This document shows, piece by piece, positions 1,152 to 63,883 of a DNA stretch of 64,000 nt. Every line of letters begins with the position of its first letter. Positions within the stretch are counted from its first letter, which is position 1. This DNA is from Squalus acanthias (Eukaryota). The translations under genes and the position numbers were made by a program. Under the pieces are notes generated by a model. The model did no database searches. It was not told the DNA's origin and saw only the letters and a list, made by a program, of their open reading frames with translations. The DNA lies in NCBI GenBank assembly GCA_030390025.1, contig CM059432.1:8618001-8682000 (forward strand), read 5' to 3'.

Positions 1152-1248
1152 AGCTTGCACTCACAGACAGAAGAGAAAAAGAGAGAGAGAGCGAGCTTGT
1201 ACTGACAGATGGAAGAGAGAGAGAGAGAGAGAGAGCTTGTACTGACAG

Positions 1249-1279
<31 letters not shown>

Positions 1280-1416
1280 CTTGTACTCGCAGATGGAAGG
1301 GAGAGAGAGAGAGAGAGAGAGAGCTTGTACTGACAGATGGAAGAGAGAGAGAGAGAGAGAGAGAGCTTGTACTGACAGATGGAAGAGAGAGAGAGAGAGA
1401 GAGCTTGTACTGACAG

Positions 1417-1447
<31 letters not shown>

Positions 1448-3286: not shown

Positions 3287-3317
<31 letters not shown>

Positions 3318-3647
3318 CTTGTACTGACAGATAGAAGAGAGAGAGAGAGAGAGAGAGAGCTTGTACTCACAGATGGAAGAGGGAGAGAGAGAGAGAGAGC
3401 TTGTACTGACAGATGGAAGAGAGAGAGAGAGAGAGAGAGCTTGTACTGACAGATGGAAGAGAAAGAGAGAGAGAGAGAGCTTGTACTCACAGATGGAAGA
3501 GAGAGAGAGAGAGAGAGAGCTTGTACTCACAGATGGAAGAGAGAGAGAGAGAGCTTGTACTCACAGATGGAGGAGAAGAGAGAGAGAGAGAGAGAGCTTG
3601 TACTGACAGATGGAAGAGAGAGAGAGAGAGAGAGCTTGTACTCACAG

Positions 3648-3678
<31 letters not shown>

Positions 3679-3691
3679 CTTGTACTGACAG

Positions 3692-3723
<32 letters not shown>

Positions 3724-5544
3724 CCTTGTACTCACAGATGGAAGAGAGAGAGAGAGAGAGAGAGAGCTTGTACTGACAGATGGAAGAGAAAGAAAGAGAG
3801 AGAGAGAGAGAGCGAGCTTGTACTGACAGATGGAAGAGAGAGAGAGAGCGAGCTTGTACTGACAGATGGAAGAGAGAGAGAGAGAATGTGCGGGTTATGT
3901 TGATTTGGCTATGATAAATTGACCCTTAGTGTTAGAGGGGGATTAAATATGTGGGGTTATGGGGATAGGATGGGATATGTTAGGGGGAATTAAATACGTG
4001 GGGTTACGGGGGTAGGGTGGGATATGTGTACTGTGGTGATTAAAGCAGGGACAGGGTACTGGATTTGGATGATCAGCCATGATCGTATTGAATGGTGGAG
4101 CAGGCTCGACGGGCCGAATGGCCTACTCCTGCTCCTAGATTCTATGTTTCTATGTTTCTATGTAAGAGAGAGAGAGAGAGCTTGTACTCACAGATGGAAG
4201 AGAGAGAGAGAGAGAGCTTGTACTGACAGATAGAAGAGAGAGAGAGAGAGAGAGAGAGCTTGTACTCACAGATGGAAGAGAGAGAGAGAGAGAGAGCTTG
4301 TACTCACAGATGGAAGAGAGAGAGAGAGAGAGAGAGAGCTTGTACTGACAGATAGAAGAGAGAGAGAGAGAGAGAGAGAGCTTGTACTGACAGATGGAAG
4401 AGAGAGAGAGAGAGAGAGCTTGTACTCACAGATGGAAGAGAGAGAGAGAGAGAGCTTGTACTGACAGATGGAAGAGAGAGAGAGAGAGAGCTTGTACTGA
4501 CAGATGGAAGAGATAGAGAGAGAGAGAGCTTGTACTCACAGATGGAAGAGAGAGAGAGAGAGAGAGAGCTTGTACTGACAGATAGAAGAGAGAGAGAGAG
4601 AGAGAGAGCTTGTACTGACAGATGGAAGAGAGAGAGAGAGAGAGAGAGAGCTTGTACTGACAGATAGAAGAGAGAGAGAGAGAGAGAGAGCTTGTACTCA
4701 CAGATGGAAGAGAGAGAGAGAGAGAGAGAGAGCTTGTACTGACAGATAGAAGACAGAGAGAGAGAGAGAGAGAGAGCTTGTACTGACAGATAGAAGAGAG
4801 AGAGAGAGAGAGAGAGAGCTTGTACTCACAGATGGAAGAGAGAGAGAGAGAGAGCTTGTACTGACAGTTGGAAGAGAAAGAGAGAGAGAGAGCTTGTACT
4901 CACAGATGGAAGAGAAAGAGAGAGAGAGAGAGAGAGCTTGTGCTCACTGATGGAGGAGAAGAGAGAGAGAGAGAGAGAGAGCTTGTACTGACAGATGGAA
5001 GAGAGAGAGAGAGAGAGAGCTTGTACTCACAGATGGAAGAGAGAGAGAGAGAGAGCTTGTACTCACAGATGGAAGAGAGAGAGAGAGAGAGAGAGCTTGT
5101 ACTGACAGATGGAAGAGAGAGAGAGAGAGAGAGAGCTTGTACTGACAGATGGAAGAGAGAGAGAGAGAGAGAGAGCTTGTACTCACAGTTGGAAGAGAGA
5201 GAGAGAGAGCTTGTACTCACAGATGGAAGAGAGAGAGAGAGAGAGAGCTTGTACTCACAGATGGAAGAGAGAGAGAGAGAGAGAGAGCTTGTACTGACAG
5301 ACGGAAGAGAAAGAGAGAGAGAGAGAGCTTGTACTCACAGATGGAAGAGAGAGAGAGAGAGAGAGAGAGCTTGTACTCACAGATGGAAGAGAGAGAGAGA
5401 GAGAGAGCTTGTACTCACAGATGGAAGAGAGAGAGAGGGAGAGAGCTTGTACTGACAGAGGGAAGAGATAGAGAGAGAGAGAGAGAGAGAGCTTGTACTG
5501 ACAGATGGAAGAGAAAGAGAGAGAGAGGGAGCTTGTACTCACAG

Positions 5545-5575
<31 letters not shown>

Positions 5576-6078
5576 CTTGTACTCACAGATGGAAGAGAGA
5601 GAGAGAGAGCTTGTACTCACAGATGGAGGAGAAAGAGAGAGTGAGAGAGCTGGTACTCACAGATGGAAGAGAGAGAGAGAGAGAGCTTGTACTGACAGAT
5701 GGAAGAGAAAGAGAGAGAGAGAGAGAGCTTGTACTCACAGATGGAAGAGAGACAGAGAGAGAGAGAGAGAGCTTGTACTGACAGATGGAAGAGAGAGAGA
5801 GAGAGAGCTTGTACTCACAGATGGAAGGGAAAGAGAGAGAGAGAGAGAGAGAGAGCTTGTACTGACAGATGGAAGAGAAAGAGAGAGAGAGAGAGAGCTT
5901 GTACTGACAGATGGAAGAGAGAGAGAGAGAGAGAGAGAGCTTGTACTGACAGATGGAAGAGAAAGAGAGAGAGAGAGAGCTTGTACTGACAGATGGAGGA
6001 GAGAAAGAGAGAGAGAGAGAGAGCTTGTACTGACAGATGGAGGAGAGAAAGAGAGAGAGAGCGAGCTTGTACTCACAG

Positions 6079-6115
<37 letters not shown>

Positions 6116-6486
6116 TACTCACAGATGGAAGAGAGAGAGAGAGAGTGAGAGCTTGTACTCACAGATGGAAGAGAAAGAGAGAGAGAGAGCTTGTACTCAC
6201 AGATGGAAGAGAAAGAGAGAGAGAGAGCTTGTACTGACAGATGGAAGAGAGAGAGAGAGAGAGGTTGTACTCACAGATGGAAGAGAGAGAGAGAGCTTGT
6301 ACTCACAGATGGAAGAGAAAGAGAGAGAGAGAGAGAGCTTGTACTCACAGATGGAAGAGAAAGAGTGAGAGAGAGCTTGTACTCACAGATGGAAGAGAAA
6401 GAGAGAGAGAGAGCTTGTACTGACAGATGGAAGAGAGAGAGAGAGAGCTTGTACTCACAGATGGAAGAGAGAGAGAGAGAGAGAGA
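1152..6486. repeat. Compound minisatellite GCTTGTACT(C/G)ACAGATGGAA(GA)n, unit about 36-46 bp, roughly 120 copies (estimated from length/unit)
   Basis: Directly visible tandem array; explains all E/R-rich and S/L-rich ORFs in this interval. Confidence 0.98.
3886..4163 (+). mobile_element. 5'-truncated HE1-like SINE (central domain plus CR1-type 3' tail)
   Basis: TTGATTTGGCTATGATAAATTGACCCTTAGTGT-like core, GGGCCGAATGGCCTACTCCTGCTCCT stem and (TTCTATGT)n tail; 16-bp TSD AAGAGAGAGAGAGAGA at 3870-3885 and 4164-4179. Confidence 0.7.
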
Positions 6487-7564: not shown

Positions 7565-9340
7565 ATGGGTGCCATTTATGCTGTCTCACCTTGGTGCTCA
7601 GAATTGGACCACAATCTACAAGGCACAAGTAAGGAGTGTGATAGAATACTCTCCACTTGCCTGGATGAGTGCAGCTCCAACAACACTCAAGAAGCTCGAC
7701 ACCATCCAGGACAAAGCAGCCCGCGTGATTGGCACCTCATTCACCACCTTAAACATTCACTCCCTCCACCACCGGCGCACTGTGGCTGCAGTGTGTACCG
7801 TCTACAAGATGCACTGCAGCAACTCGTCAAGGCTTCTTTGGCAGCACCTCCCAAACCCGTGATCTCTACCACCTAAAAGGACAAGGGCAGCAGGCGCATG
7901 GGACCACCACCACCTCCAATCACCTGCAAGTTACACACCATCCTGACTTGGAAATATATCGCCGTTCCTTCATCGTCGCTGGGTCAAAATCCTGGAACTC
8001 CCTCCATAACAGCACAGTGGGAGTACCTTCACCACACGGACTGCAGCAGTTCAAGAAGGCGGCTCACCACCACCTTCTCAAGGGCAATTAGGGATGGGCA
8101 ATAAATGCTGGCCTTGCCAGCGACGCCCACATCCCATGAACGAATAAAACAAAATCCACGATGAGGCCCAACACCAGCAGCACCAACAACAACAACACCA
8201 CCAACCTTCTCCTCAACCACCTGATGCTACACAGGACAGAGGGCAGCAGCGCAGGCCTGCACCGCGCCGGAGGCGATACCCACAACACAGAGTATACAGG
8301 CAGAGGATGAGGTTCCTCAACATGACAGTGCCAAAGGAGGCTCAGGCTATTGCGCCAGGTCCTCGCAGACGTTTGCACATTGCTGGAGCAAGAGCTGCAG
8401 CCCAGAGGAGCGGGTGGACATGCCTTACCAGTGACTGTCAAAGTCACCAGCGCCCTCAACATCTTCACCTCAGGCTCCTTCCAGGGATCTGCAGCAGACA
8501 TTTGCGGCATCTCGCAGTCGGCCACCCACAGATGCATCATACAGGTCACCAATGCCCTCTTTGACAAGTCAGCCAATTATATCAACATTGCCACTGATGA
8601 AGCCAGTGTTACTGAGCGGGCGCTTGGCTTTGCCACTCTGGCTGGCTTCCCACGGGTGCAGGGAGTCATCGACTGCACACATGTGGCCATCAGGGCACCC
8701 GATCATCACCCACTCCCTCAATGTGCAGCTCGTCTGCAACCATAGGAAGATCATCATGTATGTGTGCGCCAAATTCCATGGCAGCTGCCATGATTCTTTC
8801 ATCCTTCACCAGTCCAGCCTCCCTCAGCTCTTCACTACTCCAAACAGACTTTCCAGCTGGCTGCTTGGAGACAAGGGCTATCCACTGATGACGTTACTCA
8901 TGACACCCTTGAGGAGACCAAGTACTGAGGCCCAGGAGAGATATAATGAAAGCCACATTTCCACCAGATGTGTCATAGAGCAGACAATAGGCATGCTGAG
9001 AATGTGCTTCAGATGCCTTGACAGATCTGGAGGAGAACTTCAGTGCACACCAGCCAGGGTGTCCAGAATCATCGTGGCATGCTGCGCACTGCACAACAAA
9101 GCGCAGCAGCGAGAATTAGCGCTGCATGAGGAGCAAGGCACTGAGCGCACAGCCTCTTCAGAGGAGGAGGAGAAGCATCAGCTGGAAGACAAGGAGGAGG
9201 AGCAGGAGGAGGAGGAGGAGCATAAGCTGGAAGATGAGGAGGAGGAACAGGAGGAACCTGCGGTCCAGATCCCACCAGCACCCGAGCACATTGCTGCCCG
9301 GGAGGCCAGGGATGGCCTCATCATGTCCAGATTTACTTAA
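7565..9340 (+). pseudogene. Harbinger (HARBI1-like, DDE_Tnp_4) transposase pseudogene
   Basis: Motifs [92 protein letters not shown]; frameshifts, missing NRKG segment near 8710, LINE inserted at about 7613-8150. Confidence 0.92.
7613..8150 (+). mobile_element. Non-LTR retrotransposon 3' fragment (CR1/Zenon-like)
   Basis: IYKAQVRSVIEYSPLAWMSAAPTTLKKLDTIQDKAAR; 3' end GGCAATTAGGGATGGGCAATAAATGCTGGCC plus A-rich tail; other copies at about 11180-11297, 25706-25932, 40525-40855, 49680-50105. Confidence 0.85.
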
Positions 9341-27956: not shown

Positions 27957-30900
27957 TTACAGACTAAACTTAACCACTGGTTTTCTGTTTCGAAGAGGAT
28001 ACCTTCTTTCTTGAACAGAACTTTCAGATCTTGTTGTAGGACTCATTCTAGGCTGAGCCTGCGGAGAATTTTTCTCCACGGGCTGACCTTGATCTACATT
28101 TGGACTCTTTACACTTTCAGACTGTTTGTCTACCTGACTTGGGCTCAGACTTAAATTCTGACTTTGTCTTGGACTTGTTTCTGGTACGTCTGATGTAGGA
28201 TTTGCTACTGGTACTCTACTTGTAACAAGACTATCTGACTCATCAGAATAAATTGAATCATCCCAGCTTTCAAATATGTGCGAGGGCCACATTTCTTCAC
28301 TACTCTTCCTGGTAACCATTTTAACCATTTATGGTGATGGTTCTTCATTCTAACCTTCTGGTTCAACTTCATACTTCTCTTTCTAACTCTACCTTTATCA
28401 TGACTCTCTTTCTGCCTTGATTGTTTCTCTTATACGAACTGTGCCAAGTTTGGCTTTAACAATGAGAACCTGGTTCGTGGCTGTCGTTTGAGAAACAACT
28501 CTGCTGGTTTTCCACCAGTAGTGGCATGAGGAGTATTTGGGATAACCACTCTTGCTCCCCACATGATACAATCTTTATCCACTGACAATTCATTCCTACG
28601 AACAAAGTATGGATGGATATCTTCCTCTGATACCTGGTTTGCCATCCATTTGCTATGTAATCATACACCTTTGACATAATTGGGTCACGTTTGGTTGCCC
28701 TACCAATCTCTTCAGCTGTGACTGGCAGCTCATCAATGTATGAGAAATAGAACACTTCTTCCTTATTGGGTGTAACTTGTGATGGGGATGGCAACCTGGA
28801 CATAGCATCAGCGTTACTGTGATCAGCTGATCATCTGTACTCAATATCATACGTATACGCTGACAAAATCAAAGCCCATCTCTGCATTCGGGCTGCAGCT
28901 AAGGTTGGAACTGGGGACTTTGGATGGAGGATTGCTGTCAGGGGCTTATGGTCAGTAACTATGATAAATTTATGACCAAACAAGTATTTGTGAAACTTCT
29001 TGACCCCAAAAATCAATGACAAAGCTTCCCTTTCGATCTGTGTATAATTCCGCTCACTGGTACTGAGAGTGTGGGAAGCAAAAGCAGTTGGTCTCTCCTC
29101 CCCACTATCGAGTACATGAGAGATCACTGCCCCAACTCCGTACGGAGAGGCATCACACACCAGCTTGATCTCCTTAGATACATCATAGTGAACTAACATG
29201 GTACTCTCTACTAACTGGCTTTTACACTCTTTGAATGCTGTGTCGCAATCTTTTGACCACTTCCAAGGGACCTGTTTTCTCAACAGCTCATTCAGTGGAT
29301 GTAACAATGTAGCCATGTTTGGAAGGAACGTTCCGTAATAATACAAAAGACCCAAAAATGATTGAAGTTCAGAGACATTCTTGGGAGTGGGTGCATTTCT
29401 GATTGCATCCAGCTTTCCCTTGGTTGGAAGTGAACCATCTTTGTCTACTCTGTGTCCTAAGTACTCCACTGAGTTTTGAAACAACTCACACTTGTGAGCT
29501 GTCACTCGTACTCCGTGCTTCTCTAGCTGTTTGAGCACTTTATTCAACACCTCATCATGGATTTGCCTGTTTGGTGCTGAAATGAGTATGTCATCCAAAT
29601 AACACACTACCCCTTCAATCCCTTGCAAAATTTGGTTCATCACCCCCTGGAATATGTCGGGGGTAGAAGACACTCCAAGTGGTAGCTTATTGAACTGATA
29701 TAGGCCTCAGTGAGTATTTATAGTCAAGCATGACTTGGACTCTTCATCTAACTCAAGTTGTAGGTAGGCGTTTGTTAGATCTAACTTCGAAAAGATCTGG
29801 CCACCTGTCAGCATTGTGAACAAATCTTCCACATTTGGCAATGTATTGGGTAGATTACACTCTAGAACCTGGTTTACGGTTACCTTATAATCACCACACA
29901 ACCTTACCTTACCATCTGACTTAGGTACAACAGCAATGGGTGCAGCCCAATTACTCAGATCTACCTTAGAGATAATGGGCCGAAAATTGATCCCGGGACG
30001 CGAGAGTACGCACTGCATACTCTCGCGTATTCCCACTCCAATTGCCGGTTTTCTGCATGCCCTGCGCATGCGCTGAAAACCGGCAATTGCTCTTCCGAAA
30101 AGGGGGCGGGGCTTGAGTGCATCGCGTGCGCGCTACAGGCTGCGCGCACGCTGTGCACTTCATGCTTTGGACGCGCAGGTAAGTAGGGAAGATTTTGGAA
30201 ATGTAAAAAGGAGGAGTAAGACCCGCTTTTAAGAAGGTAAGTAGTGAATTAAGTATTTTTTTGAATTTTTTTTTACAGGTATATCTTTTTTATAGACTTT
30301 AAAGACAGGTAAGTTTATTTTTATAACTTTTTAAAAGATTTTAAATTTTTTCAAAAATTTAATTTTTTATTTAAAATGGTTAATTTAATTAACTATACTT
30401 ATTTTATTAATGTGATGGTTTTTTTTTAATTTAATTGAGGTTTAGCTGTTATTTTGGGGGGGTGTAAGATTCATAAGTCTCACAGCTATGCTGTGAGACT
30501 TATGAATGGAAGATGGTGTGCTGCCATTGGCTCTAACTGAGTCACGTGATCCCACAGCTCGCACGAATTAACTACGCCGCTGGGATACGCAAGCCCAGCA
30601 CAGCTGATGTCTGGAACATCAATTTCGTGCGAGCTGGATCAGAAAAAGCATAAGCGAGGTGAGACATCGCGGGGAAGGCTTACCCCCGCGGGAACAGAGC
30701 GAGATCAATTTCTGGGCCAATGTTCTCAGTTTCTAGTCTTTCGAGTTCTTGCTCAACTTTCTCCTTGAGTGTGTATGATACGGGACGTGGCTTACAGTAA
30801 ACTGGTCTTGCATCCTTCTGCACTCTGACACTCGCCTTGAAGTCTTGGATCAGACTGCCCGTTTCGCTGAACACCTGCTTGATGACATCATCTTTCGATG

Positions 30901-32128
30901 CAAATTTCGCTTCTGCACGAAAAATCTCATTCCAATCCAGCTTCAGTGATCCCAACCAATTTCTCCCTATCAAGGCAGGCTTGTCTCCTGCCACTACTAT
31001 GAGAGGCAAGCTCTGACACTGATCCTTGTATTTCACTGGTATGGTGACGCTTCCTACTACAATGATTTGCTCTCCTGAGTAGCCTCGCAGCTCTACCTTC
31101 GATTTCTCTAGTCGATAATCATGCAACTTGTCGCGATATAGTGATTCCGGTACTACGCTCATGGATGCACCAGTGTTGATTTCCATGGGTATCCTGGTTC
31201 CTGCGACATCTACTTGGATGACGATACCTTGCGAATCGCTGTTAGATACCTTCGTGCTCCTAATGACATGAATCTCCAGAAACTCCTCGTCCTGCTGCTT
31301 CTCTTCAACGGTATGTAGTGTCTGCCGATTTCTACTTCTAGCATTGCCAGTCGGTTTACTCTTTGTCGGCACACCTTCACAAGATGCCCAGTTTTCTTGC
31401 CGTAGAAACACACTGCCTTCACAATGGACAACTTTGAGCGATGTATTGTCCCAGGCACCGATAGCACGACTTCAATGCACTGTTACCTTGGCCAGTTGCT
31501 GAGGCCTTGGGGCCCAACTGCCTTTTACTTTTAGCCTGCAGCCAATTCACCTCAGTTGGCTGATGACTGGAAATGGCACGGAACTCTCGGGAGTATCAGT
31601 CGGCCACATCCATGGACATAGCTGTCTGACAAGCCAAGTCAAAAGTCAAGTTAGGGGGTTGTCAACAATTTACTTCTGATATGTTCATTTTTCAACCCAC
31701 AAACAAAGCGGTCGCGCAAAGCTCGGTCCTGAAAGTTTCCAAAATGACAGCTTTTTTAAAGCTACAATGTACTCACTGATACCCTCGTCATTTAATTGAC
31801 CACATGTTCCAAAATGATAACTTTCAGCAATTTCCAGGGGCTCAGGACTGTAGTGCTGTTCCAACTTGGTTAGGATCTCCTTCAGTGGCATGTCCTTCGG
31901 CTTGGCGGGAACAAGCACATTTTTCAGGGCTTCACACACCTCGGGGCCTGCTTCAGTCAAAAAAATAGCCCGTTTCATTTCTAAAACCACCCGGTTACGG
32001 TTTACATCATCGGGGACTTCGATGATACTATTCACGGTGAAAAACATTTCTAGCCACTGCACATACAAAGTCTCTCGGTCGCAATGGAACTCACCCAAGC
32101 GCCCTATTATTCCCACAGGCACAGCCAT
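27957..32128 (-). pseudogene. Gypsy gag-pol pseudogene
   Basis: Gag start MAVPVGIIG, degenerate knuckle CFYGKKTGHLVKVC, protease INTGASMS, RT RLCGDYK/YLDD, RNase H CDASPYGVGAV; RVVIP fused directly to NTPHATTG; many stops and frameshifts. Confidence 0.93.
29977..30718. mobile_element. Harbinger-type MITE, 742 bp, inserted in Gypsy RT
   Basis: Imperfect 16-bp TIR ending AAATTGATC, TSD AAT; removal restores ETENI-ISKVD. Confidence 0.92.
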
Positions 32129-51720: not shown

Positions 51721-52851
51721 ATTTTAAATTTAGTCTCAGAAAAATTTTCTTTAAAAAAATATAGCAGCAAAACTGAACAGTAATGCAACCGCAACAACAA
51801 CAACAACTTGCATTTATAGAGCGCCTTTAAAGTAGTAAAACGTCCCAGGGCGCTTCATACGAGCGATTATCAAACAAAATTTGGCACCGAGTCACATAAG
51901 GAGATATTAGGACAGGTGACCACAAGCTTGGTCAAAGAGGATGATGTTAAAGACCTCTAACAGGTCACCCCCTCAGTCTTCACTTTTCGAGAGAAAAGAG
52001 CCCCAGCCTGTTCGATCTTTCCTGATATGTATAACCTCTTAGTTCTGGTATTATCCTTGTAAATCTTTTTTTAGCACCGTCTCCAGTGCCTCTATATAAT
52101 TTCTGTAATATTGAGACGAGAACTGTGCACTTATGACACTGCGATCTTTTTAACTTTAATCATCAATAATAAATAACACTATAGAAAAGTATTCCATAAT
52201 AGGAATGCCAATAATATTTAGTAACTTGCAAGTGCTCATTTAGAATTCCCTATGTCCATAATTACTTGCTGTGCTTCATGTAAATAAATTAGTTATTGGA
52301 TTTCTGTTGCCTGGAAGTCTTACTATAAAAGCCTATTATTCATACATAGCCCAAAGTCAATTCATGCAAACAATATTTCATGTCTCAGTACATGATTCTT
52401 CCACTTCCAGTTGCTCAGAGTCATTCCTATAAAACCTTCAGCAAAAAGAAGGGTGAAGATGTTGAAGATGGTGCTGAGATGTTAGGGCAAGGTAGCGTAC
52501 CCACAGTGTTTGAGAGTAAGGGATCTGGTAGGTGTCCATTGTTCTGTAGAACAATGGGCGAACTTTACAGTAATGTCAGGATCTTCTATCTTAGAATTGA
52601 TAGGGTGACCTGTAGGTTTGGATAACCTTTAAATGTGTATTATAGTTGCGTTAGAAGCTATGCTATTAAAATGTAACTGTAACTGCAAGGTATGGTGGGA
52701 AGCTTGACCAAAATCAGACCAAAGCGTAGTGTCAGCATTTAACAGTAGCAGTAGTTGTAATAAAGTTTCCCCACGAAACCTTGAATCAGGAACAATGAAC
52801 AAAGATAATGGTCAAAAATGAGAATTCGCACAACACCAGGTTATAGTCCAA

Positions 52852-53744
52852 GGGGTAAAAATTCAGTTGGTTGCGCCTCCCGTTAGCGCCTTAAGAGGGT
52901 GCTAATGGGGCGCAAAGCCGCTAACGCCCGGGCGCAGCGATGTTTGCGCCGCTCGAGAACTTAATTTGAGATTGTGCGGCGGCGCTAAACTTTACCGCTG
53001 CGACCACCTGCGCGCGCAGATTGTGACGTCATTCCATGGTGCAACGCCCTTGTGGCGCCCCGGAGCGGAAATTGAGTGGCGCCCCCTGCCTTACCGCCTG
53101 GCACATCCAATGACCAGAAGACTGGAACGCTATCAATCGCTGTGGGGCTGGGGGGGGCGCTATTTAAAGGGGGCCTCTTCCTGTCTTTTATTGTTGGTGG
53201 CATTTTTGAACTACGCATTCTGAGAGAGAGAGGGAGAGACTTCTGGAGAGATTCAACGTTGTGTGAAGGAGTTTTGGGTACTGAGCAGCACTTTGCAGGT
53301 TCATTTTGATTTGCCATTCCTTGTATCGATTTAGCAGAGACTGTGGGAGCTGCACTCTGAGCTCTTTGCCTGGTACTCTCCATTGTTCTTTCCAGCACAT
53401 TTGATGTGCAAGTCTCTCCAGGCCGAGATTCAAGGCTGCAATGAACAGGATGTGGATGGAAAGCAAGATTAACCATCCCCTTTAAGAACTGGCCCGTGCC
53501 ATTGTGTGTGTGTTCCATTGCTGACTGACATTACATGAGCTTCGCCAGCACTCTGAGTTAGTGCATCACTCCTTGGCCTTTGCGCCTTAAGACAGGTGTG
53601 CAGCACCTGATTTAGCGCTCCACTCACCTCCCGGGGCGGTAAAAGTGAAGTTTCCAGTCAGTGCCGATAATTAGCGCCAGGCGCTAATATTTGCGTCCAG
53701 ACGATATTTGCGCCCCAAATGGGGCGCGACCTAATTTCTACCCC
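52852..53744. mobile_element. Harbinger-type non-autonomous element, 893 bp
   Basis: TIR GGGGTA(A/G)AAATT, TSD CAA; removal restores TTATAGTCCAACAG. Confidence 0.9.
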
Positions 53745-53763
53745 CAACAGGTTTATTTGAAAT

Positions 53764-53798
53764 TACGAGCTTTCGGAGCGCTGCTCCTTCATCAGGTA
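53764..53798 (-). ncRNA. Minimal type I hammerhead ribozyme
   Basis: TAC-CTGATGA-A-GGAGC agc GCTCC-GAAA-GCTC-GTA. Confidence 0.78.
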
Positions 53799-54114
53799 CA
53801 GTGAGGGAATTCCGAAAGCTCGTAATTTCAAATAAAACTGTTGGACTATAACCTGGTGTTGTGCGACTTTTCATTTTTGTCCACCCCAGTCCAACACCGG
53901 CATCTCCGCATCAAAGATAATGGTAACTGGAGACTGGATAAGATAAACAAAATTGCAGAAAGGCAGATGTAAGGACCTTGGGTCCAGGACAGTTAAACCA
54001 TTGTAAATTTGAGAGACTTCGGTGCGCTGAAGGCTCTCCCCTGCATGCTTGTAATAAAGTTTCTCTCATATCACAGCCTACCCGTGACTCCGATTGGTTT
54101 CTTCCACAACAACT

Positions 54115-54132
54115 TGGCGTAGTCGGCAGGAT
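54115..54132 (+). promoter_or_regulatory. ERV primer-binding site, tRNA-Ser
   Basis: TGGCGTAGTCGGCAGGAT is the 18-nt complement of the vertebrate tRNA-Ser(AGA/TGA) 3' end ATCCTGCCGACTACGCCA. Confidence 0.93.
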
Positions 54133-54301
54133 CCGCTGCTAGTACCAGAACAAGGGCACCGTTCCGGGACCAACAGACAAAGTGGGGTGAGTACGTTCAT
54201 TTATACCACCCAGTAGTTAGGTCTGTGGGCACGGAGCGGTCCCTCGGACTATCAGGGATCTCGAACAATACGGAGTCAGAACGGCTGTCATGTGAGAGAG
54301 A

Positions 54302-54434
54302 TGATGCGGAGATGCCGGCGTTGGACTGGGGTGGACAAATGTGAGAAGTCGCACAACACCAGGTTATAGTCCAACAGTTTTATTTGAAATCACAAGCTTT
54401 CGGAGCGCTGCCCCTTCGTCAGGTGAAGTCACTT
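54302..54434 (-). mobile_element. Short Penelope-type insertion in the ERV leader
   Basis: TSD ATGTGAGAGAGA (54290-301, 54435-46). Confidence 0.85.
54391..54425 (-). ncRNA. Minimal type I hammerhead ribozyme
   Basis: CAC-CTGACGA-A-GGGGC agc GCTCC-GAAA-GCTT-GTG. Confidence 0.78.
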
Positions 54435-54572
54435 ATGTGAGAGAGAGAGAGGGCAACGTTGCAAAGTGGTTGTGGTCGCCGACGGCCAGGTGAGGGCCGG
54501 GGGAGAGAGCTTAACGGGTGTCTCTCGGGGGGTAGGAGACCCCCGCGATTTCTAAAGACTTAAGTAGGTAAG

Positions 54573-55432
54573 ATGGCCGAGGGAAAGCCAGATCCTCAGG
54601 GATCCATAACAGAGTATTTTGTTAAATAAACATGACAAGGTAATAAAAAGAACGGTAAAGGAAGGCTGGGAGCCTGAATGGATTCCCGACCGGCAAAAAG
54701 ACTGGTGGAGCAAGGAAAGCAAAAATAAGGAGGAGAAAGCAATAGTGGTTCATTGCCAGGTCCACCGAAAAATGTGTAAGATGGGAGCGACACAGGAGAA
54801 GGAAAAAAAGGAGTTAGTGGAACAGTTTAAAAAGGCAAAGAAGATAGGCGCCAAGTGTGCCGCTGTAATGAAGATAAGGTCAGCGCAAAGTGGAAGGAAT
54901 GAGAGTGATGAGGGTGATTGGGATCATTTGGAAGAAGAGGCAGCAGAATGGGAGCACCATGATGACGAACCGCCAGATTACGAGATAACTGGTGAGGGTC
55001 TATATCCGTCACTAAATGGATTGGTCGCAGTGACGGAGAGCTAAGTCAGCCCCAATTGAAACCCAACGGAGACAGATCGCTAGCGCAGCTGACCCCCGCC
55101 AATCCACGGATACTGATAACGACCGTACACAAACCCTTTACACCAGGGGAAAAACAACGAATATTGGCGGATCTCCCGGTCCCATGGCAACCCCGAGTTT
55201 TGGCGGAGATTGGAGGAAATGATAGACATACACTGTATGCATCCAAAAGACATACATGTCCTGGGGAAGGCGAAGTGCCCTGGGAATGTATGGGAGAGTT
55301 GTGCCCCGAATGTTCGGGACGGAACTTGGACAGGCTCCTTGGTGGCAGACAGGGACAGCGCCATCAGTACCCTCCCTCACCCCGGATCAGATTTTAGAAA
55401 TAATTAAATTGGCCTCTAAGGCTGATAAATAG
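54573..55432 (+). pseudogene. gag: ERV gag, disrupted and short
   Basis: ATG at 54573 (MAEGKPDPQGS), basic MA-like region, PPDY late-domain-like motif, capsid-like KPFTPGEKQRILADLP; several stops and frameshifts; assigned mainly by position. Confidence 0.7.
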
Positions 55433-56750
55433 GTCGCCTCGGCCCCCTCAGGCAGCTCAGGCGACCCCCGGATAGACACCACAGCATTGTTAGGGGGCCG
55501 GCAGTGTGAGATGTTGGTGGACATGGGAGCGTCTGTATCGATAACCGACCAACCTTTACCAACTTCGAATAAAACACTGTATATAACTGGAGTAGGAGGC
55601 AACTCAGTTAAGGCAAGAAGAAGTGAGTCACAATTGTTGGAATTGGGAGGAATTTTAATACCGGTCCACTTCTGGGTTTGTCCGACTAACAAGGAAACAA
55701 TATTGGGGATTGACATATTAAGAGAAGCGGGGGCAATAATTGATCCAGGGCGGGGGAAAGTTGCGCGGCGGACTGGCAGAGGAAACAGAAAGCACAGCCA
55801 CGGACCGAGAGCCGCAACTCAATATACCACCATGGTGGCCTCCGCCACCCCTATCACACGGGACTGGGCAGCTGAGGGCGTCTTTGGGCTTGTGTGTTCC
55901 CAATTTCCGGAGGTATGGGCTAGACATAAACAGGATTGCGGGAAGGTCGATATGACACCCGTCGTGGTCGAGGGGGAAACTCACAAACCACATAAACAAT
56001 ATCCTATTAAACCAGAGGCGAGATCAGCGGTGCAGGCAATAGTTCACGAACTACTGAAGGAGGGTATATTAAAAAAGACCACTTCAACGCCGAACTCCCC
56101 GGTATGGCCGGTTAGGAAACCGGATGACTCCAGGCGTCTTACGATAGATTATACTGCGCTAAATAAATGCATCCCGAGACTGCACCCAACTGTAGCGAGC
56201 CCGGCAACAATTTCCAATGGTCTTAGCCCAGAACATAACATTTTTACGGTATTGGATGTTTCCAATGGATTTTGGAGTCTGCCTTTGGCTCCAGAGTCAC
56301 AAAGCAAGTTTGCGTTCACTGTGGCAGACCAGCAGTATACTCGGACCCGGCTGCCACAGGGATTCCACAATAGCCCCGCTATATTCCACAAAGCAATGGC
56401 CCAAGCTTTGGCCGGAGTGGAACTGACCCCGTACGGGAGTAGAGTGCTCCAGTACGTGGACGATTTACTGATCGCGTCTACCTCCAAAAAGGGGCACTGT
56501 GGTGCCTTGGTGTGCATACTAGAGGCCCTTCAGAAACAAGGATTGAAGATTAGTCCAAAGAAAGCACAAATTGGGCAGGGGACAGTGCAGTACCTGGGAC
56601 ACACAATTACACAAGGGCACAAAGCTATGTCGGAAGATCAGAGACAGGCAATTAGTGAGATGCCTCGTCCGATTAATGTACAGGGGGTCTGGAAGGTAAT
56701 GGGTTTGTTCAACTACTGTAGCAATTTTATACCTAATTTTGCGCCGATTA

Positions 56751-59146
56751 GAACATAAGAACATGAGAAATAGAGCAGGAGTAGGCCAATCGGCCCCTCG
56801 AGCCTGCTCCGCCATTCAATAAGATCATGGCTGATCTGATCCTAACCTCAAATCTAAAGAACACAAGAAGTAGGAGCAGGACCCGGCCACTCAGCCCCTG
56901 GGCCCGCTCTGCCACCCACAGGGCCCTGACCAATCCGAACTCAGCCTCATGTCCAATTTGCTGCCCGCTCCCTGTAACCCCTAATTCCCTTTACTTCTAG
57001 GAAACTGTCTATTTCTGTTTTAAATTTATTTAATGATGTAGCTTCCACAGCTTCCTGGGGCAGAAAATTCCACAGACCTACTACCCTCTGAGTGAAGAAG
57101 TTTCTCCTCATCTCAGTTTTGAAAGAGCAGCCCCTTATTCTAAGATTATGCCCCCTAGTTCTAGTTTCACCCATCCTTGGGAACATCCTTACCGCATCCA
57201 CCCAATCAAGCCCCTTCACAATCTTATATGTTTCAATAAGATCGCCTCTCATTCTTCTGAACTTCAATGAGTAGAGTCCCAATCTACTCAACCTCTCCTC
57301 ATATGTCCATCCCCTCATCCCCGGATTAACCGAGTGAACCTTCTTTGTACTGCCTCGAGAGCAAGTATGTCTTTTCTTAAGTATGGACACCAAAACTGTA
57401 TGCAGTATTCCAGGTGCGGTCTCACCAATACAACTGCAGCAATACCTCCCTGTTTTTATAATCTATCCCCCTAGCAATAAAAGCCTACATTCCGTTGGCC
57501 TTCTTGATCACCTGCTGCACCTGCATACTAACTTTTTGATTTTCTTGCACTAGGACCCCCCAGATTCCTTTGTACTGCAGTACTTTCCAGTTTCTCGCCA
57601 TTAAGATAATAACTTGCTCTCTGATTTTTCCTGCCAAAGTGCATAACCTCACATTTTCCAATATTGTATTGCATCTGCCAAATCTCCGCCCACTCACCCA
57701 GCCTGTCTATATCCCCTTGTAGGTTTTTTATGTCCTCCTCACGTTCTACTTTCCCTCCCATCTTTGTATCATCTGCAAACTTTGATATGTTACACTCGGT
57801 CCCCTCCTCCAAATCGTTAATATAGATTGTAAAGAGTTGGGGACCCAGCACCGACCCCTGCGGAACACCACTGGCTACTGGTTGCCAGTCCGAGAATGAA
57901 CCATTTATCCCAACTCTCTGCTTCCTGTTAGATAACCAATCCTCCACCCATGCCAGAATATTACCCCCAATCCAGTGATTTTTTATCTTGAGCAATAATC
58001 TTTTATGTGGCACCTTGTCGAATGCCTTCTGGAAGTCTAAATACACTACGCCCACTGGTTCCCCTTTATCCACCCTGTACGTTATCTCCTCAAAGAACTC
58101 AAGCAAAATTTGTCAGACATGACTTCCCCTTCATAAAGCCATGCTGACTTTGTCCTATTAAATTATGTTTATCTAAATGTTCCGTTACTGTCTCCTTAAT
58201 AATAGACTCCAAAATTTTACCCACCACAGATGTTAGGCTAACTGGTCTATAATTTCCAGCCTTCTGCCTACTACCCTTTTTAAATAAGGGTGTTACATTA
58301 GCAGTTTTCCAATCTGCCGGGACCTTTGCTGAGTCCAGGGAATTTTGGAAAATTATTACCAAAGCATCCACAATCCCTACTGCCACTTCCCTCAAGACCC
58401 TAGGATGTAAGCCATCAGGTCCAGGGGATTTATCCGCCTTGAGTCCCATTATTTTACTGAGTACCAATTCCTTAGTGATTTTAATCATATTTAGCTCCTC
58501 CCCGCCTAGAGCCCCCTGTTTGTCCAGTGGTGGGATATTCTTAGTGTCCTCTACCGTAAAGACTGAAACAAAATATTTGTTCAGCATTTTTGCCATCTCC
58601 ATGTTTCCCACCATTAATTTCCCGGTCTCATCCTCTAAGGGACCTACGTTTGCCTTAGCCACCCTTTTTCTTTTTATATAACTATAGAAACTCTTGCTAT
58701 CTGTTTTTATATTTTTTGCTAATTTATTTTCATAATCTATCTTCCCTTTCTTAATCAATCCTTTAGTTACTTTTTGCTGTCTTTTGAAGACTTCCCAATC
58801 TTCTATCCTCCCACTAAGTTTGGCTACCTTATATGTCCTTGTTTTTAGTCGGATACTATCCTTAATTTCTTTACTTAACCACGGATGGCTGTCATTTCTT
58901 TTACACCCTTTTTTCCTCAGTGGAATTTATTTTTTTTGAAAGTTGTAAAATAACTCCTTAAATGAACACCACTGCTCATGTACCGTCTTACCCTTTAATC
59001 TATTTTCCCAGTCCACTTTAATCAATTCCGCTCTCATACCATCATAGTCTCCTTTATTCAAGCTCAGTACGCTTGTTTGAGAACCAACCTTCTCACCCTC
59101 TAATTGGATATGGAATTCAACCATGTTATGGTCACTCATTCCACTC
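56751..59146 (-). mobile_element. 2.4-kb CR1 LINE inserted in ERV pol
   Basis: ORF2 motifs [28 protein letters not shown] duplicated at 56747-50 and 59147-50; pol reads NFAPI-MAPTQ across it. Confidence 0.96.
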
Positions 59147-60142
59147 ATTATGGCACCAACACAGAATTTGATAAAAGGGGGTAAGGCCCCGCTAGAATCA
59201 GTGGACTGGAAACGGGAGCAAGAAAAAGCATACAGAATGATTAAACTCGCTCTAACCTCGGCCCCGGCACTGGGTCTCCCGGATATGTCAAAACCCTTTC
59301 ACACTCATTGCGATGGTGAGGGGGCATTTTATAATGCAGCAGTGACTCAAACCCACGGTGACCGCCACCGGCCCGTGGCCTATTACTCAACACGGCAATC
59401 CGCGGTAGCAGCGGGATTCCCCCGCTGCGTGGCAGCACTGGACTGCGCCGCTTGGGCGGTCCAGGTGAGTGAACCGGTGGTGACGGCCGGGCAATTGATC
59501 TTGCACACCCAACACACTCTGGTAGAGCTACTTAATACTGGAAGGTTAAGAGCAGTATCAGCTAGCCGAAGAGCAGCATGGGAAGCGGTACTTATCCCAA
59601 AGGATAAGTCCGTACAGATTGTTAAAGATGGTGGATTAAACCCTGCGGGCGGCATATTAACGGAAGGAGAAGAACATCAGTGTGAACTAGCGGGAGAGGA
59701 TGAGGAAAGTTGTGGGGTAAAAGATAGCCCACTTGAAGGGGGGTGTGAAGTGATGTTTGTCGACGGTTCGAGGAAATTTGTAAGCGGTACACCCCATACG
59801 GGATGGGCAGTCGTGAGCAAGGACGGTCGGGTGGTCCGACAAGGGGCTCTGGAAGGAGGGGACTCCACCCAGGTAGCGGAACTGGCAGCTCTTATCGAAG
59901 CATTACGGGCTTGTCAAGGGAAACGAGTGAATATTTACACCGATAGTCGGTACGCGTTCGGCGTAGTCCACCATTATATGGCCTCATGGGCCCGAAGGGG
60001 GTTTATAACATCCTCAGGGGGGGTCACATTAAACATGAAGTGCCAGTAAAGGCACTGGTGGAGGCTGCAGGGCTCCCACTGGAGGGAGCAGTAGTCAAGG
60101 CAAAAGCACATCAGAAGGGGGACGATTGGATACAGAAAGGAC

Positions 60143-60303
60143 TGTCCAGGGAGAGTATAAATACTCGGGCATGGGCCCAGCTTGCTTAGGACATTCCTCA
60201 ACAGGAACTAGTGAAGGACACAACTAGATCTCCATGTTGAAAAACAGTTGATTAAAGCTTTGTTTAACGCTTAGAGCAAGTGCCTAGTAGTTTTCTTACG
60301 TCA
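60143..60303 (+). other. Foreign LTR-like fragment replacing the end of RNase H
   Basis: TATAAA at 60156, ATTAAA at 60251, ends in CA; interrupts pol after KAHQ...QKG. Confidence 0.5.
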
Positions 60304-61556
60304 CTCCCTTCTCCGGCCCCGGTGGCAGCTTGCGCTATCGGACCAGAGGAAGTAAATACGGTGCAACTGCACAAAGATACGTCAAACGAAGAGAGAGAGG
60401 TATGGGAAAGACAAGGGGCAAAGGAAGATGTGACTGGGGTATGGAAGTTAGAAGGGGCAGACCAGGTGGTAGCCCCCGAGTGTATCAGGCAGAATTTACT
60501 AGAAATCTATCATGGGGATATACATCAGGGAAAGCATGGGATGCTGCACTCACTAAGGAGATGCTGGTGGTGGCCGGGCATGGGCAGGGACGTGACAAAG
60601 CACTGTCAGAGGTGCCTGATCTGTGCGCAGTATAACCCAGGAAAGGGGATAAATGTTCGTATGGGAAATCAACCGAGACCGAAGGGACCATGGGGAAACC
60701 TACAAATCGCTTTCACCGGTCCCCTTCCAAAGAGTAGGGGAAAGACCTACTGCCTGGTAATAATGGATCACTTCACTCGCTGGGTAGAGGCCTTCCCAAC
60801 ACAGAAATTGCACCGCCGATACGGCCGCAAGAATCTTGGCAGAGGAGGTGATACCCCGGTGGGGGGTCCCCCTACAAATAGATTCTGACCAGGGGACCCA
60901 CTTTATGGGTAGGGTCATGAAGATGGCATGTCAGTTATTGGGGGTAAAGCAGAGGTTCCACATACCTGACCACCCTCAGAGTTCCGGAATGGTGGAACGT
61001 ATGAATAGAACCCTGAAAACAGCTATAGCAAAAGCGATTGTGAGCACGGGTAAGAACTGGGTGGATGTCCTCCCGACCCCCCAACCGGACAATAGGACTG
61101 AGTCCATCTGAATTAATGACTGGGAGGGCTATGAGATTACCAGAAGGGGTGATAGAAGGGTGTAGTGAAACAGGGCCGCTGAGGGATAGAATTACACGGT
61201 ATGTTGCGGAGTGATGTAAACAGCTTCAAGGGATGAAAGTGGAAGTAAAGCAGCAGCAAGAAGCGACAGATCGACACGGGCACGGGCCTGAACCCGAGTC
61301 ATCGGGGCTCCCAACGGTGGGAGACAGGGGAATGGTAAAAGGGGTGCCGTCCAAACCGGGACTGGCGCCTCGGTGGTCTGGGCCTTACACGGTCCTAATG
61401 ACCAGCGATACATGTGTGTGTGTTTGGACATACGAAAGGGGGTAGGTGGAAACATTGGTCCCAGGTTAAGCCGTGTGACTCACATTCTGTTTCTACCAAC
61501 AGGAAAGCTAGCAGCAGATCTCTTAATTACTTTGTTTCAGATAAACCTATCTCACA

Positions 61557-63665
61557 ATGGGGGCTTGGTGGACGGCCGTGACAGCGATCACCCTCCTGAC
61601 AATTACGGTAGCGTGGAAGGCGCCCACCGTGCACATCGATAAAAGTACTTGTTTGCATCCAGGACAATACATGCAACTGCCACAGGGGGGAAAAGGGGAA
61701 TGGGTAAAGAAACCCAATATATGGATCACGGACCAGGTCACCGCACGTACCCATACGACCAAGGTATGGAAAATAAATCCCAAATGTAATATGGGACAAG
61801 GATACTGGGACCCTATCTGTGGCAGCAACCATGAACTGTCCACCCCCGGACAACCAGTCCGATTGGCACGGCCTCCCTGCCCATCACAAAGGGTAAGATC
61901 GGGGTACGGCGCCCCGGGCGGTTGGTCATATGAACTTGAGGTCCGTCCCGGCACCACGCGAGCAGACTCCTTCAACTCGGTCTGGATCCCCGTTATCGGA
62001 CCCAGAAGTGACAATTATACCCAACTACAAACTAGTGTGGATACTGATGGAGATATAACGGTCACCGGCATATATGATGAGGCCACGGGACTGGGACGTT
62101 GGTTATACTCCTGCTCGCCGCACGAGGGGCAGCGCGGAAAAACGATAGGTTTGGTCATCAGTACCGTCAACATTATAGCAGGGTGGACTAAATTACCCCC
62201 ATTCATTTGGGAACCAGGACTTGAGGGACAATATTGCCAAGAATTGTGTAGCGATGTTCTTAAGCGGTTGGGATGTACTGATATAAGATGCTTTCATTTA
62301 ACAACATGTGGATATCAAAAGCCGTCGCGGTGTCCCACCACGGTGCCACCTCCAACGGATGGCATGATCAGGGTCGGGGGCCCGAAGGCACTCTTACATG
62401 ATGTAACTATGGTCACTTTAGAAGTAACCTATAACCTGAGCAGTATAGTGCCGGCGTTAGAGGCCAATTGTGGTGATCACCCAGCATCAATTACTTGGGC
62501 AAAGCATAAATTGCAGCGATTACTCAGTGATTATAAGGACCGCATAGCCCCCGAAGTAGGGGCCTCCAAGGGGCGACAGGGACGGAGTATATTAGGGGAA
62601 GTGGGGGGCTTGTTTGGAAGTGCCAACTCGGTCCTAAATTCATGGCAAGTCACGGGCCTGGATAGCTATGCCTCCAGGGTGGCGCAGGAAAGCGCCAAGG
62701 GCCTGCGCTTCACAGCTCAGGGAACGGAGTATGCGCTTACGGCAGTAGAAGTGCTTGGAACCGGGTTACAGAGAGGTATAGAGGACCTAGGGAAAGTCGT
62801 AATAAAGGCGACTGATTTGCAGTCCAAGGGCCGAGCATGTGTCATGCTGGCTCGGGACTTGATTGACAGTGTTGAATCAGACATTGAAGACATCAGGTTT
62901 GGGACGGTGCCCCGTCATGCGCAGAAGGAAGTCAGCAGTCTCAATCTGATTAACTGGGAGGAAGATAGACAGGAGCTCTTGGTAACCCGCCCAGCAGGCG
63001 GGGGGACTGCGGATGCATTTAGATTTCTAATGATGATGCCACAGGGGCACAAGAATGGGACATATCAGGGGGGATGTAAAGTAGAGTCTCTGGGAGTGGT
63101 CAGAGGCGAATCGGCATACCGGGTGGGTACCCGTGGATACGTAGTACCTGGCAAGAATGGCATCCTCCTGATGACCACGGATGAGTGCTGTACTGAATCA
63201 GAGCACTACATCGTGTGTACCTGTAACACCCTGAAACCGATAGATGAGGGCTCAGCAGTGGTGGTGATGGTAGAGCCTCTGGAAGGAGTCTTTCGGGCGA
63301 TTCAGGCATCTCTGACTCAGTGGTGTTTTCTGACCGACGAGAAGAACTACCTCTACGGAGGATTGGTATGTGCAAATAATCATACGTTTTGCCTTCAAGT
63401 TTCAGACTCTCTCACCGTGGGAGATTTCCATCTCCCAGGCAGAACCCTCGCCGGCCTGGTCTTCAGCCCATGGTGGGATGACGAGTTGAGTGTGGATGAT
63501 ACACCAGGGAGGGCCGCTAGGGTGGCGGTGGAACAGGCCTTGAAAGCCACAATGGAATACATTACACGGAGTAAACAGGCCCTCACAAGAGGAAGAGTGG
63601 AGGTGGACTTGACCAAAAGAACGGCTAGAGGCTGGGAGCTAAAAGGCAGGGACCTTCAGCCATAG
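61557..63665 (+). CDS. env: ERV envelope glycoprotein, 702-aa open ectodomain
   Basis: Kozak ACAATGG, N-terminal signal peptide, Cys-rich SU, RQGR cleavage site (62574-85), fusion-peptide-like SILGEVGGLFG, heptad region, Cys-rich domain; follows integrase. Confidence 0.9.
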   Translation: MGAWWTAVTAITLLTITVAWKAPTVHIDKSTCLHPGQYMQLPQGGKGEWVKKPNIWITDQVTARTHTTKVWKINPKCNMGQGYWDPICGSNHELSTPGQPVRLARPPCPSQRVRSGYGAPGGWSYELEVRPGTTRADSFNSVWIPVIGPRSDNYTQLQTSVDTDGDITVTGIYDEATGLGRWLYSCSPHEGQRGKTIGLVISTVNIIAGWTKLPPFIWEPGLEGQYCQELCSDVLKRLGCTDIRCFHLTTCGYQKPSRCPTTVPPPTDGMIRVGGPKALLHDVTMVTLEVTYNLSSIVPALEANCGDHPASITWAKHKLQRLLSDYKDRIAPEVGASKGRQGRSILGEVGGLFGSANSVLNSWQVTGLDSYASRVAQESAKGLRFTAQGTEYALTAVEVLGTGLQRGIEDLGKVVIKATDLQSKGRACVMLARDLIDSVESDIEDIRFGTVPRHAQKEVSSLNLINWEEDRQELLVTRPAGGGTADAFRFLMMMPQGHKNGTYQGGCKVESLGVVRGESAYRVGTRGYVVPGKNGILLMTTDECCTESEHYIVCTCNTLKPIDEGSAVVVMVEPLEGVFRAIQASLTQWCFLTDEKNYLYGGLVCANNHTFCLQVSDSLTVGDFHLPGRTLAGLVFSPWWDDELSVDDTPGRAARVAVEQALKATMEYITRSKQALTRGRVEVDLTKRTARGWELKGRDLQP

Positions 63666-63883
63666 GCTCAGGCCAAAGACAGCCTGACTGGTGGGACATA
63701 GGTAGAATGGCAGCCGCCATCGCCTCCATGCTCGTCCTTATTATCAGTATATGCATCTGTTGCTATCAAAAATGGATGATATCCCAAGTGGTGAAGATGT
63801 CAAATAGGGGAAACGCCCCGGTGTCAGAAGCCAAGGTGCCACTCTCAGAGACTGGGGAAAAGTGGGACGCGTATGCTCTATAA
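63629..63883 (+). pseudogene. env: Frameshifted Env C-terminus (membrane-proximal region, TM helix, cytoplasmic tail)
   Basis: -1 frame reads RLGAKRQGPSAIGSGQRQPDWWDIGRMAAAIASMLVLIISICICCYQKWMISQ...DAYAL* with TAA at 63881-83. Confidence 0.88.

Follow-up and report, generated by a model that had tools for sequence, protein, structure and literature searches.

A widespread, unnamed family of retroviral envelope proteins with F-type architecture, represented by a defective endogenous retrovirus of the shark Squalus acanthias

The envelope protein (Env) of foamy viruses was tied to the fusion (F) protein of paramyxoviruses in 2024, its gp130 (PDB 8RM1, 8OZH) being described as a retroviral Env with an F-like fusion core (PMC11468914), and the Env of lokiretroviruses had been linked to F in 2020 (PMC7947760). 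An F-type env on a long terminal repeat (LTR) retroelement is also an established pattern among invertebrate elements, for which no vertebrate homologues are reported (bioRxiv 10.1101/2023.10.26.564294). Among fish retroviruses, walleye dermal sarcoma virus (WDSV) and walleye epidermal hyperplasia virus (WEHV) are described as having a distinct Env that lacks the gamma-type hallmarks (PMC9967133). Here we describe an env gene within 64,000 nucleotides of the Squalus acanthias genome (assembly GCA_030390025.1, contig CM059432.1, positions 8,618,001 to 8,682,000, forward strand; this whole stretch is called the window and gives the numbering used below). The Env family to which it belongs is real, widespread and unnamed, with an F-type architecture. 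We consider it fairly probable that the gene is the env of an endogenous retrovirus (ERV) present in many copies, of which this one is old and defective, and that it encodes a class I fusogen with the plan of an F protein.

The env gene and its family

Within its provirus the gene comes last, 3' of gag and of the region for protease (PR), reverse transcriptase (RT), RNase H and integrase (IN), between the LTRs; this position bears out its initial annotation as a retroviral Env. It consists of two plus-strand frames within 61557-63883, together encoding ~775 amino acids (aa). The first is open from stop to stop at 61545-63665, with an ATG at 61557, a stop codon at 63663-63665 and a product of 702 aa, and the second (63629-63883, 84 aa) contains the membrane anchor and tail. 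The frame shifts somewhere within 63620-63665, a place where most paralogous copies, and also most contigs assembled from public sequencing runs, have a length other than that of the window copy. Because the frame is broken ahead of the anchor, this copy is unable to make an anchored Env. The features below combine the translation with AlphaFold2 (AF2) models, their predicted local distance difference test (pLDDT) scores and Kyte-Doolittle (KD) hydropathy; SU and TM denote the surface and transmembrane subunits, and HRA and HRB heptad repeats A and B.

61557..61616 (+): signal peptide, residues 1-20 (KD mean 1.73; AF2 helix 2-18)
61617..62408 (+): N-terminal part of SU, residues 21-284, with 11 Cys (up to residue 259); fold not predicted
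62409..62573 (+): pre-cleavage module, residues 285-339, with Cys305; a strand and two helices at pLDDT 79-90
62574..62585 (+): putative furin-type cleavage site RQGR, residues 340-343 (regex search; conservation in relatives)
62586..62639 (+): putative fusion peptide SILGEVGGLFGSANSVLN, residues 344-361, directly after RQGR (translation and conservation)
62667..62897 (+): HRA-like heptad helix, residues 371-447, containing Cys428 (AF2, heptad shuffle test)
62898..63476 (+): beta-rich Cys domain, residues 448-640 (~190 aa), ending in PWW; ~15 strands by DSSP of the AF2 model
63504..63626 (+): membrane-proximal HRB-like helix, from residue 650 (AF2 helix 650-696)
63620-63665 (+): frame break (open reading frames; length comparison with paralogs and public-run contigs)
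63707..63766 (+, second frame): membrane anchor MAAAIASMLVLIISICICC (KD 2.69)
63767..63883 (+, second frame): short cytoplasmic tail and stop codon

The signal peptide, RQGR followed by the putative fusion peptide, long heptad stretch, Cys-rich block, WW pair and transmembrane segment named in the initial annotation were all found, and its lengths were close to those measured, with ~323 aa for SU (~325 claimed) and ~373 aa for the post-cleavage ectodomain (~370 claimed). Env shows the general marks of a class I fusogen, namely a signal peptide, a protease site freeing an N-terminal fusion peptide, an adjoining heptad helix and a C-terminal anchor. In the 77-aa helix 371-447, 77% of the a and d positions are hydrophobic in a single register, a value equalled by 4/2000 shuffles. 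The Cys blocks DECCTESEHYIVCTCNTL, QWCFLT and LVCANNHTFCLQ fall within the beta-rich domain; PWW occupies residues 638-640, and WWD precedes the anchor in the second frame. A regex search of Env found no CX6CC, no CXXC in SU and no LQNR motif, and there was also no match to TLV_coat, in line with the earlier claim that the protein lacks an LQNR-type motif and CX6CC and is neither gamma- nor beta-type. The foamy-type leader peptide, which has a membrane span of its own and was said to be missing, is indeed absent, the N-terminus being an ordinary 20-residue signal peptide. A match of the anchor piece to Orthoreo_P10 (E 0.022, below the cut-off) was put down to hydrophobic-segment noise.

An exhaustive phmmer search of 1.84 billion representative proteins revealed 40 proteins at E<=1e-3, including 23 at <=1e-10 and 6 at <=1e-30. 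The distant relatives in sharks, teleosts and turtles share 25-49% identity with Env. The best non-self matches came from the sharks Scyliorhinus torazame and Carcharodon carcharias (44-49%). Organism and protein name were looked up for 20 of the 40, which brought in the cyprinids Rhinichthys, Cyprinus and Danio (with named cluster members from Siphateles and Carassius), Denticeps, Paramormyrops and the turtles Caretta and Chrysemys; every named entry among these 20 is called 'uncharacterized', 'hypothetical' or similar. Word-indexed protein searches gave one match for Env (Sardina) and three for the family alignment (including Myxocyprinus and Synaphobranchus), and the TM half shares 30% identity with the sardine protein over 413 aa (E 7e-64). 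The initial proposal of a lineage special to cartilaginous fish is not supported, since cyprinids, clupeiforms, an eel, a mormyrid and turtles have relatives as well. An integrase end like that of murine leukaemia virus (MLV) precedes Env in the proteins from the eel and the sucker, so the linkage of a class I-type pol to this env is not peculiar to sharks; one member has a weak MLVIN_C match (E 0.0058). One phmmer match, a 3724-aa protein that contains a fungal cell-wall domain (E 1.8e-5, over 11 stretches), was taken as a low-complexity false match and left out of the alignments. A scan of IMG/VR with the RT found no relative, and a literature search of openly readable work found no description of the Env family.

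Among the aligned relatives, the P1 Arg of RQGR is kept in 16/18, and G351, F353, G354, N357 and S358 of the fusion peptide in 16-18 of 18-19. Ahead of the cut, C305 is kept in 17/18 and W314 in 18/18, and C428 in the long helix in 18/20. For each of the beta-domain cysteines C544, C545, C554, C556, C590, C605 and C612, 23-31 of 26-34 relatives have the same residue, and the WW pair is among the conserved columns of the family alignment. The N-terminal part of SU (pLDDT mostly <40) is kept among the copies in the host genome and partly in cyprinid proteins, from residue 208-243 onward.

Env has at least 83 matches in the host assembly (3.7 Gb), at identities of 67-93%; most of these contain stops, and one copy has an open 764-codon frame. 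Compared with this open copy, the window env has a dN/dS of 0.371 over 690 codons (SU 0.29, TM 0.38), and 24/25 of the copy pairs listed fall below 0.7, the remaining pair being at 0.955. With most pairwise values below 0.7, much of the divergence therefore accumulated in a phase of viral spread, when selection still acted on Env; this selection was purifying as the family spread. The full open frame of one paralog and the pairwise dN/dS below 1 are also what a host-domesticated, syncytin-like envelope gene would give. We consider that explanation highly improbable: the window copy has a frameshift, its surroundings are those of a provirus (LTRs, a retrotransposon in pol and a gag deletion), dozens of degraded family copies exist, and inter-copy values of 0.4-0.7 are the signature of viral replication preceding integration.

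Contigs holding 18-36% of the 31-mers of the env were found in public runs from eight coded organisms (8 studies), so near-identical family members are present in several related taxa or samples. In three runs merely guessed to be RNA, family contigs extended over 30, 30 and 23 of 30 bins, which is no evidence on expression; among the runs holding family contigs, no RNA run is on record.

Resemblance to F proteins

We compared the AF2 models with known structures using Foldseek. Against the PDB, the top ranks, all non-significant, were taken by the F proteins of measles virus, human parainfluenza virus 3 (hPIV3), respiratory syncytial virus (RSV), human metapneumovirus (hMPV) and Nipah virus, along with the foamy-virus TM. 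The top 10 for model 1 comprised 8 F chains (measles, hPIV3 or RSV) and the foamy post-fusion TM, and that for model 2, which covers the TM half alone, 7 F chains and one foamy chain. In BFVD, the top 10 (E 0.012-0.14) included a baculovirus F (rank 3, E 0.012, prob 0.66), RSV F0, feline foamy Env and WEHV-1 Env. VIA alignments placed model residues 1-213 on F residues ~44-290, and both models pack helices 371-447 and 650-696 as a hairpin. By ESM-Atlas features, the closest families were Baculo_F (0.94, with 205/256 features in common), gypsy Env (0.92) and Fusion_gly (0.91).

In F proteins, HRC, HRA and a core sheet make up domain III, and domain I and the Ig-like domain II stand between HRA and HRB. 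The pre-cleavage module (residues 285-339) is, from its modelled fold, a candidate counterpart of the HRC region of F2. Its Cys305 lies 38 residues ahead of the cut, and Cys428 is residue 85 past it; with the RSV cleavage positions that we assumed for comparing the spacing, the two are placed roughly like the F2-F1 pair of RSV, and by analogy they may pair. For RSV F, F2 C69 is thought to be linked to F1 C212 (PMC1540417).

On the F-protein plan, the intact protein might work as follows. The signal peptide would route Env into the endoplasmic reticulum, and a furin-type protease would cut behind RQGR, freeing an N-terminal, Gly/Phe-rich fusion peptide. SU, made up of a putatively receptor-binding N-terminal part and then the conserved helical module just ahead of the cut, would stay held to TM, probably through a Cys305-Cys428 disulfide. 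Upon a trigger, the 77-residue HRA could stretch into a trimeric coiled coil with the fusion peptide inserted; the beta-rich Cys domain would form the head, and the membrane-proximal helix would fold back, drawing the membranes together. From the layout and by analogy with F-type fusogens, we infer that the protein trimerises, carries this disulfide, adopts the F fold and is active in fusion. A homotrimer prediction for residues 366-698 scored 0.00 with its own fold uncertain and says nothing either way.

Several results weigh against an F-type identity. At E<=1, Pfam returned 0 families for Env, and at E<=10, 43 family members gave no match to Fusion_gly (PF00523), Baculo_F, Gypsy, Foamy_virus_ENV or TLV_coat. 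Nothing relevant was found with phmmer and the family profile among PDB sequences, and hhalign of the Env family with the TM of the foamy-type Env of the host genome gave a probability of ~0.2%. The AF2 models are both of low confidence (mean pLDDT 48.7 for model 1 and 55.0 for model 2), the model of the TM half alone bringing no gain in confidence; SU is unmodelled, and values of 70-90 are confined to the module ahead of the cut, helix 371-447, some of the beta region and the final helix. No Foldseek match reached E<=1e-3, TM-scores were 0.1-0.25, and ESM scores >=0.9 arise for 4-10% of shuffled proteins. Helix 650-696 has a heptad pattern within chance (1554/2000 shuffles equal it), and Cys507 is kept in 1/20 relatives, so the number of disulfides is not the same in the shark members as in those of teleosts.

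These results would also suit a class I Env lineage of its own, not homologous to F or foamy Env, whose resemblance is architectural and which may be a distant relative of WDSV/WEHV Env. Every sequence test against the F and foamy families was negative, the structural matches are non-significant and depend on the model, WEHV-1 Env appears at BFVD rank 10 (E 0.14) and the pol is gamma/epsilon-like; WDSV and WEHV are themselves described with a distinct Env that lacks the gamma-type hallmarks. We regard this explanation as rather unlikely, though far from negligible. F-type chains, not other class I fusogens, lead three independent lists, the mapping onto F is collinear and takes in the pre-cleavage helices, the ESM features prefer F-type families, and no WDSV/WEHV Env was found among the 40 phmmer matches.

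Taken with this evidence, the initial annotation of an F-like fusogen stands in part. The long TM layout of fusion peptide, HRA, ~190-aa Cys domain, HRB and anchor is present, and F and foamy chains rank first in the Foldseek comparison that had been proposed, none of them significantly. The second helix is predicted at 650-696, without a heptad pattern above chance. A sequence link to foamy Env or Fusion_gly is not borne out by Pfam or hhalign, the label 'spuma-like' lacks support in the form given, and TLV_coat, a best hit to which had been named as telling against an F-like Env, gave no match either. An F-like long TM ectodomain is supported as an architecture and, by the predicted models, weakly as a fold; homology of Env to F is suggested.

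The provirus around env

Outside env, the provirus retains the following features, of which the retrotransposon in pol is a later insertion on the opposite strand.

52598..54112 (+): 5' LTR (TG...CA), carrying an unrelated ~1.1 kb insertion at 52813-53927
54115..54132 (+): 18-nt primer-binding site that begins with TGG, a few bases past the LTR end (direct reading)
54610..55400 (+): gag remnant in shifted frames (open reading frame list)
55433..56758 (+): PR and RT frame, opening right behind a stop codon (Pfam RVT_1 9.1e-31, RVP 3.3e-6)
56947..59298 (-): LINE-type (non-LTR) retrotransposon inserted in pol (minus-strand frames, RVT_1 8e-20 and 1.1e-6)
59081..60049 (+): pol tether and RNase H (Pfam RT_RNaseH_2 2.3e-12, RNase_H 5.5e-15)
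60268..61111 (+): two overlapping frames for integrase (Pfam rve; Integrase_H2C2 2.1e-14)

The 3' LTR starts ~200 bases after the env stop, beyond the end of the window (locus L022, where coordinates above 64,000 continue the window numbering). Three pieces of the 5' LTR, 52598-52812, 53928-53994 and 53996-54112, match 64083-64297, 65749-65815 and 65913-66030 at 96.3%, 97.0% and 96.6%, so that the stretches in common total ~400 bases at 96-97% identity. The 5' LTR insertion seems to be flanked by a short duplication, and most of it recurs, at 90% identity, at 68964-69863 (L022), some 5 kb downstream of the provirus; a different insertion is carried by the 3' LTR, one of ~1.4 kb at nearly the same LTR position. 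We take the primer-binding site to be complementary to the 3' end of tRNA-Ser.

Five other copies have 466-540 bp extra near window position 55330 in gag, a region lost from the window copy. In two of the five loci examined (L031 and L034), this stretch encodes two CCHC zinc knuckles (zf-CCHC), and the gag frame runs through one in-frame stop into PR-RT in the same frame. A gag and pro-pol in one frame across a single stop, together with a nucleocapsid bearing CCHC knuckles, is typical of gamma- and epsilonretroviruses. Across the gag leader region (window 54113-55432), other copies contain a short tandem repeat of ~75-80 bp (query positions 364-439), the number of which varies by copy (for example, on C152, C636, C1384, C581 and C1131).

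The LINE insertion splits RT from the tether, and pol picks up again at 59081. Searched against the PDB, the RT scored 174.8 bits with foamy PR-RT, 168 with the RT of MLV and xenotropic MLV-related virus (XMRV), 95 with Ty3 and ~55-63 with HIV. The tether-RNase H scored 143-150 bits with MLV/XMRV RT-RNase H and matched no foamy chain at E<=1e-3, and the integrase scored 62 bits with that of prototype foamy virus (PFV). Lokiretrovirus RT is sister to that of all other retroviruses; the RT and tether-RNase H scores here suggest a place inside the known retroviruses, and by its gag and pol we read the element as gamma/epsilon-related (class I). A foamy-like ERV was rejected on the MLV-like RNase H, the gag knuckles and the lack of a PF03408 match.

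A lokiretrovirus Env, or an env recombined from one, would extend such envelopes to sharks; the initial annotation had named lokiretrovirus Env as one with a long TM ectodomain. Lokiretroviruses have a published F-like retroviral Env (Wang & Han 2020, PMC7947760), and three hosts of the relatives found here, Carassius, Cyprinus and Chrysemys, are asterisked in the genome table of that paper, a mark that we take to denote lokiretrovirus genomes. The same report gives a PF00523 match of lokiretrovirus Env at E 2.2e-7, against 0/43 family members at E<=10 here and no PF00523 match in the host genome, in a stricter first-look search from which absence is not implied, and its RT-based screen, as described there, placed lokiretroviruses in 0/1 Carcharhiniformes and 0/3 Orectolobiformes genomes; S. 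torazame, which carries a relative of this Env, is that Carcharhiniformes genome. The tether-RNase H is specifically MLV-like, and gag encodes two CCHC knuckles, whereas the Gag of lokiretrovirus Bik-1 is described with a C-terminal glycine-rich patch. With pol and gag looking gamma/epsilon-like, the element is probably not a lokiretrovirus, and we consider a lokiretroviral origin of its env improbable.

Elsewhere in the window, a satellite array at 1152-6486 (5.3 kb; 40-bp unit, ~133 copies, 83% match) is purine-rich on the plus strand and accounts for the pronounced skew in GC and AT between 2 and 6 kb. An open frame at 8435-9337 (+) encodes a DDE_Tnp_4 (PIF/Harbinger-type) transposase domain (E 6e-29), and a second LTR retroelement at 28834-31471 (-) has RT and RT_RNaseH (1.5e-33) and a gag-type aspartic protease frame.

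Comparison with known envelope systems

The layout described for foamy viruses and lokiretroviruses is now seen on a gamma/epsilon-like gag-pol, across sharks, bony fishes and turtles, in a family that has no Pfam model or database name, and screens for ERVs and syncytins built on TLV_coat-type profiles miss it. The finding bears on the open question of the origin of retroviral envelopes. That the gamma/epsilon-related gag-pol retroviruses of sharks, teleosts and turtles bore a fusogen truly of the F type is a tentative proposal, to which we give slightly less than even weight. If it is true, these would be a third retroviral lineage with an F-type envelope, after foamy viruses and lokiretroviruses, and the F plan would then represent the ancestral envelope of retroviruses or else a module that early vertebrate retroviruses repeatedly swapped with negative-strand RNA viruses or with viruses of insects. 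A true F fold would also mean that F-type envelopes were common in early vertebrate retroviruses, and the family sequences could then be used to test whether the gamma-type TM arose by shortening or took the place of an earlier one.

With foamy Env there is a non-significant structural match, a foamy post-fusion TM being in the top 10 of both Foldseek lists. Unlike foamy viruses, the present element has an Env with no leader peptide and no PF03408 match, CCHC knuckles in gag and an MLV-like RNase H; to our knowledge, foamy Gag has no CCHC knuckles. The subunits are also arranged differently, because the large extra part here sits before the HRC-like module, whereas the receptor-binding domain of foamy Env is placed after the HRC helix (PMC11468914). 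True foamy-type env remnants occur elsewhere in the host genome, with 11 matches to PF03408 of up to 88 bits; those at L023-L028 (C6, C22, C20, C17, C23 and C4) show no sequence relationship with the present env. A word-indexed search with the shark foamy-type alignment, covering lengths 87-550, found no match.

With gamma-type Env (TLV_coat, PF00429), the protein shares a retroviral SU/TM class I organisation on a gamma/epsilon-like pol. It differs in having no CXXC, no immunosuppressive domain, no CX6CC and no PF00429 match, and in an inter-helix distance of ~200 aa instead of a short loop. Epsilonretrovirus Env, as described for WDSV and WEHV, is likewise a fish retroviral Env free of gamma-type hallmarks, and the pol and gag organisation is compatible with it; the Env of WEHV-1 is far longer, at 1317 aa against ~775 aa here. 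Lokiretrovirus Env, also an endogenous retroviral Env of lower vertebrates, is reported with a signal peptide, an RXKR-type site, a fusion peptide, a coiled coil and an anchor (PMC7947760), and the present family is set apart from that published description by its lack of PF00523 similarity and its gamma/epsilon-like pol and gag.

Baculovirus F (PF12259) and the Env of gypsy errantiviruses (PF07253) are the nearest neighbours by ESM features, at the scores given above, and differ in belonging to invertebrate elements and in having no Pfam match here. Paramyxovirus and pneumovirus F proteins (PF00523) differ in having no detectable sequence similarity to this Env, which is encoded by a retrovirus and has an N-terminal subunit of ~323 aa that includes an extra Cys-rich part of ~260 aa, compared with ~90-110 aa for F2. 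In layout the two agree along most of their length: both are type I proteins with a furin-type cut, an N-terminal fusion peptide and a long HRA directly after it; both have a helical module with a conserved Cys before the cut and, at the C-terminal end of HRA, a Cys that is here the candidate partner; and in both a beta-rich Cys domain, of ~190 aa in this Env, stands ahead of HRB and the anchor, giving the anchored subunit an ectodomain of F1-like length (~373 aa).

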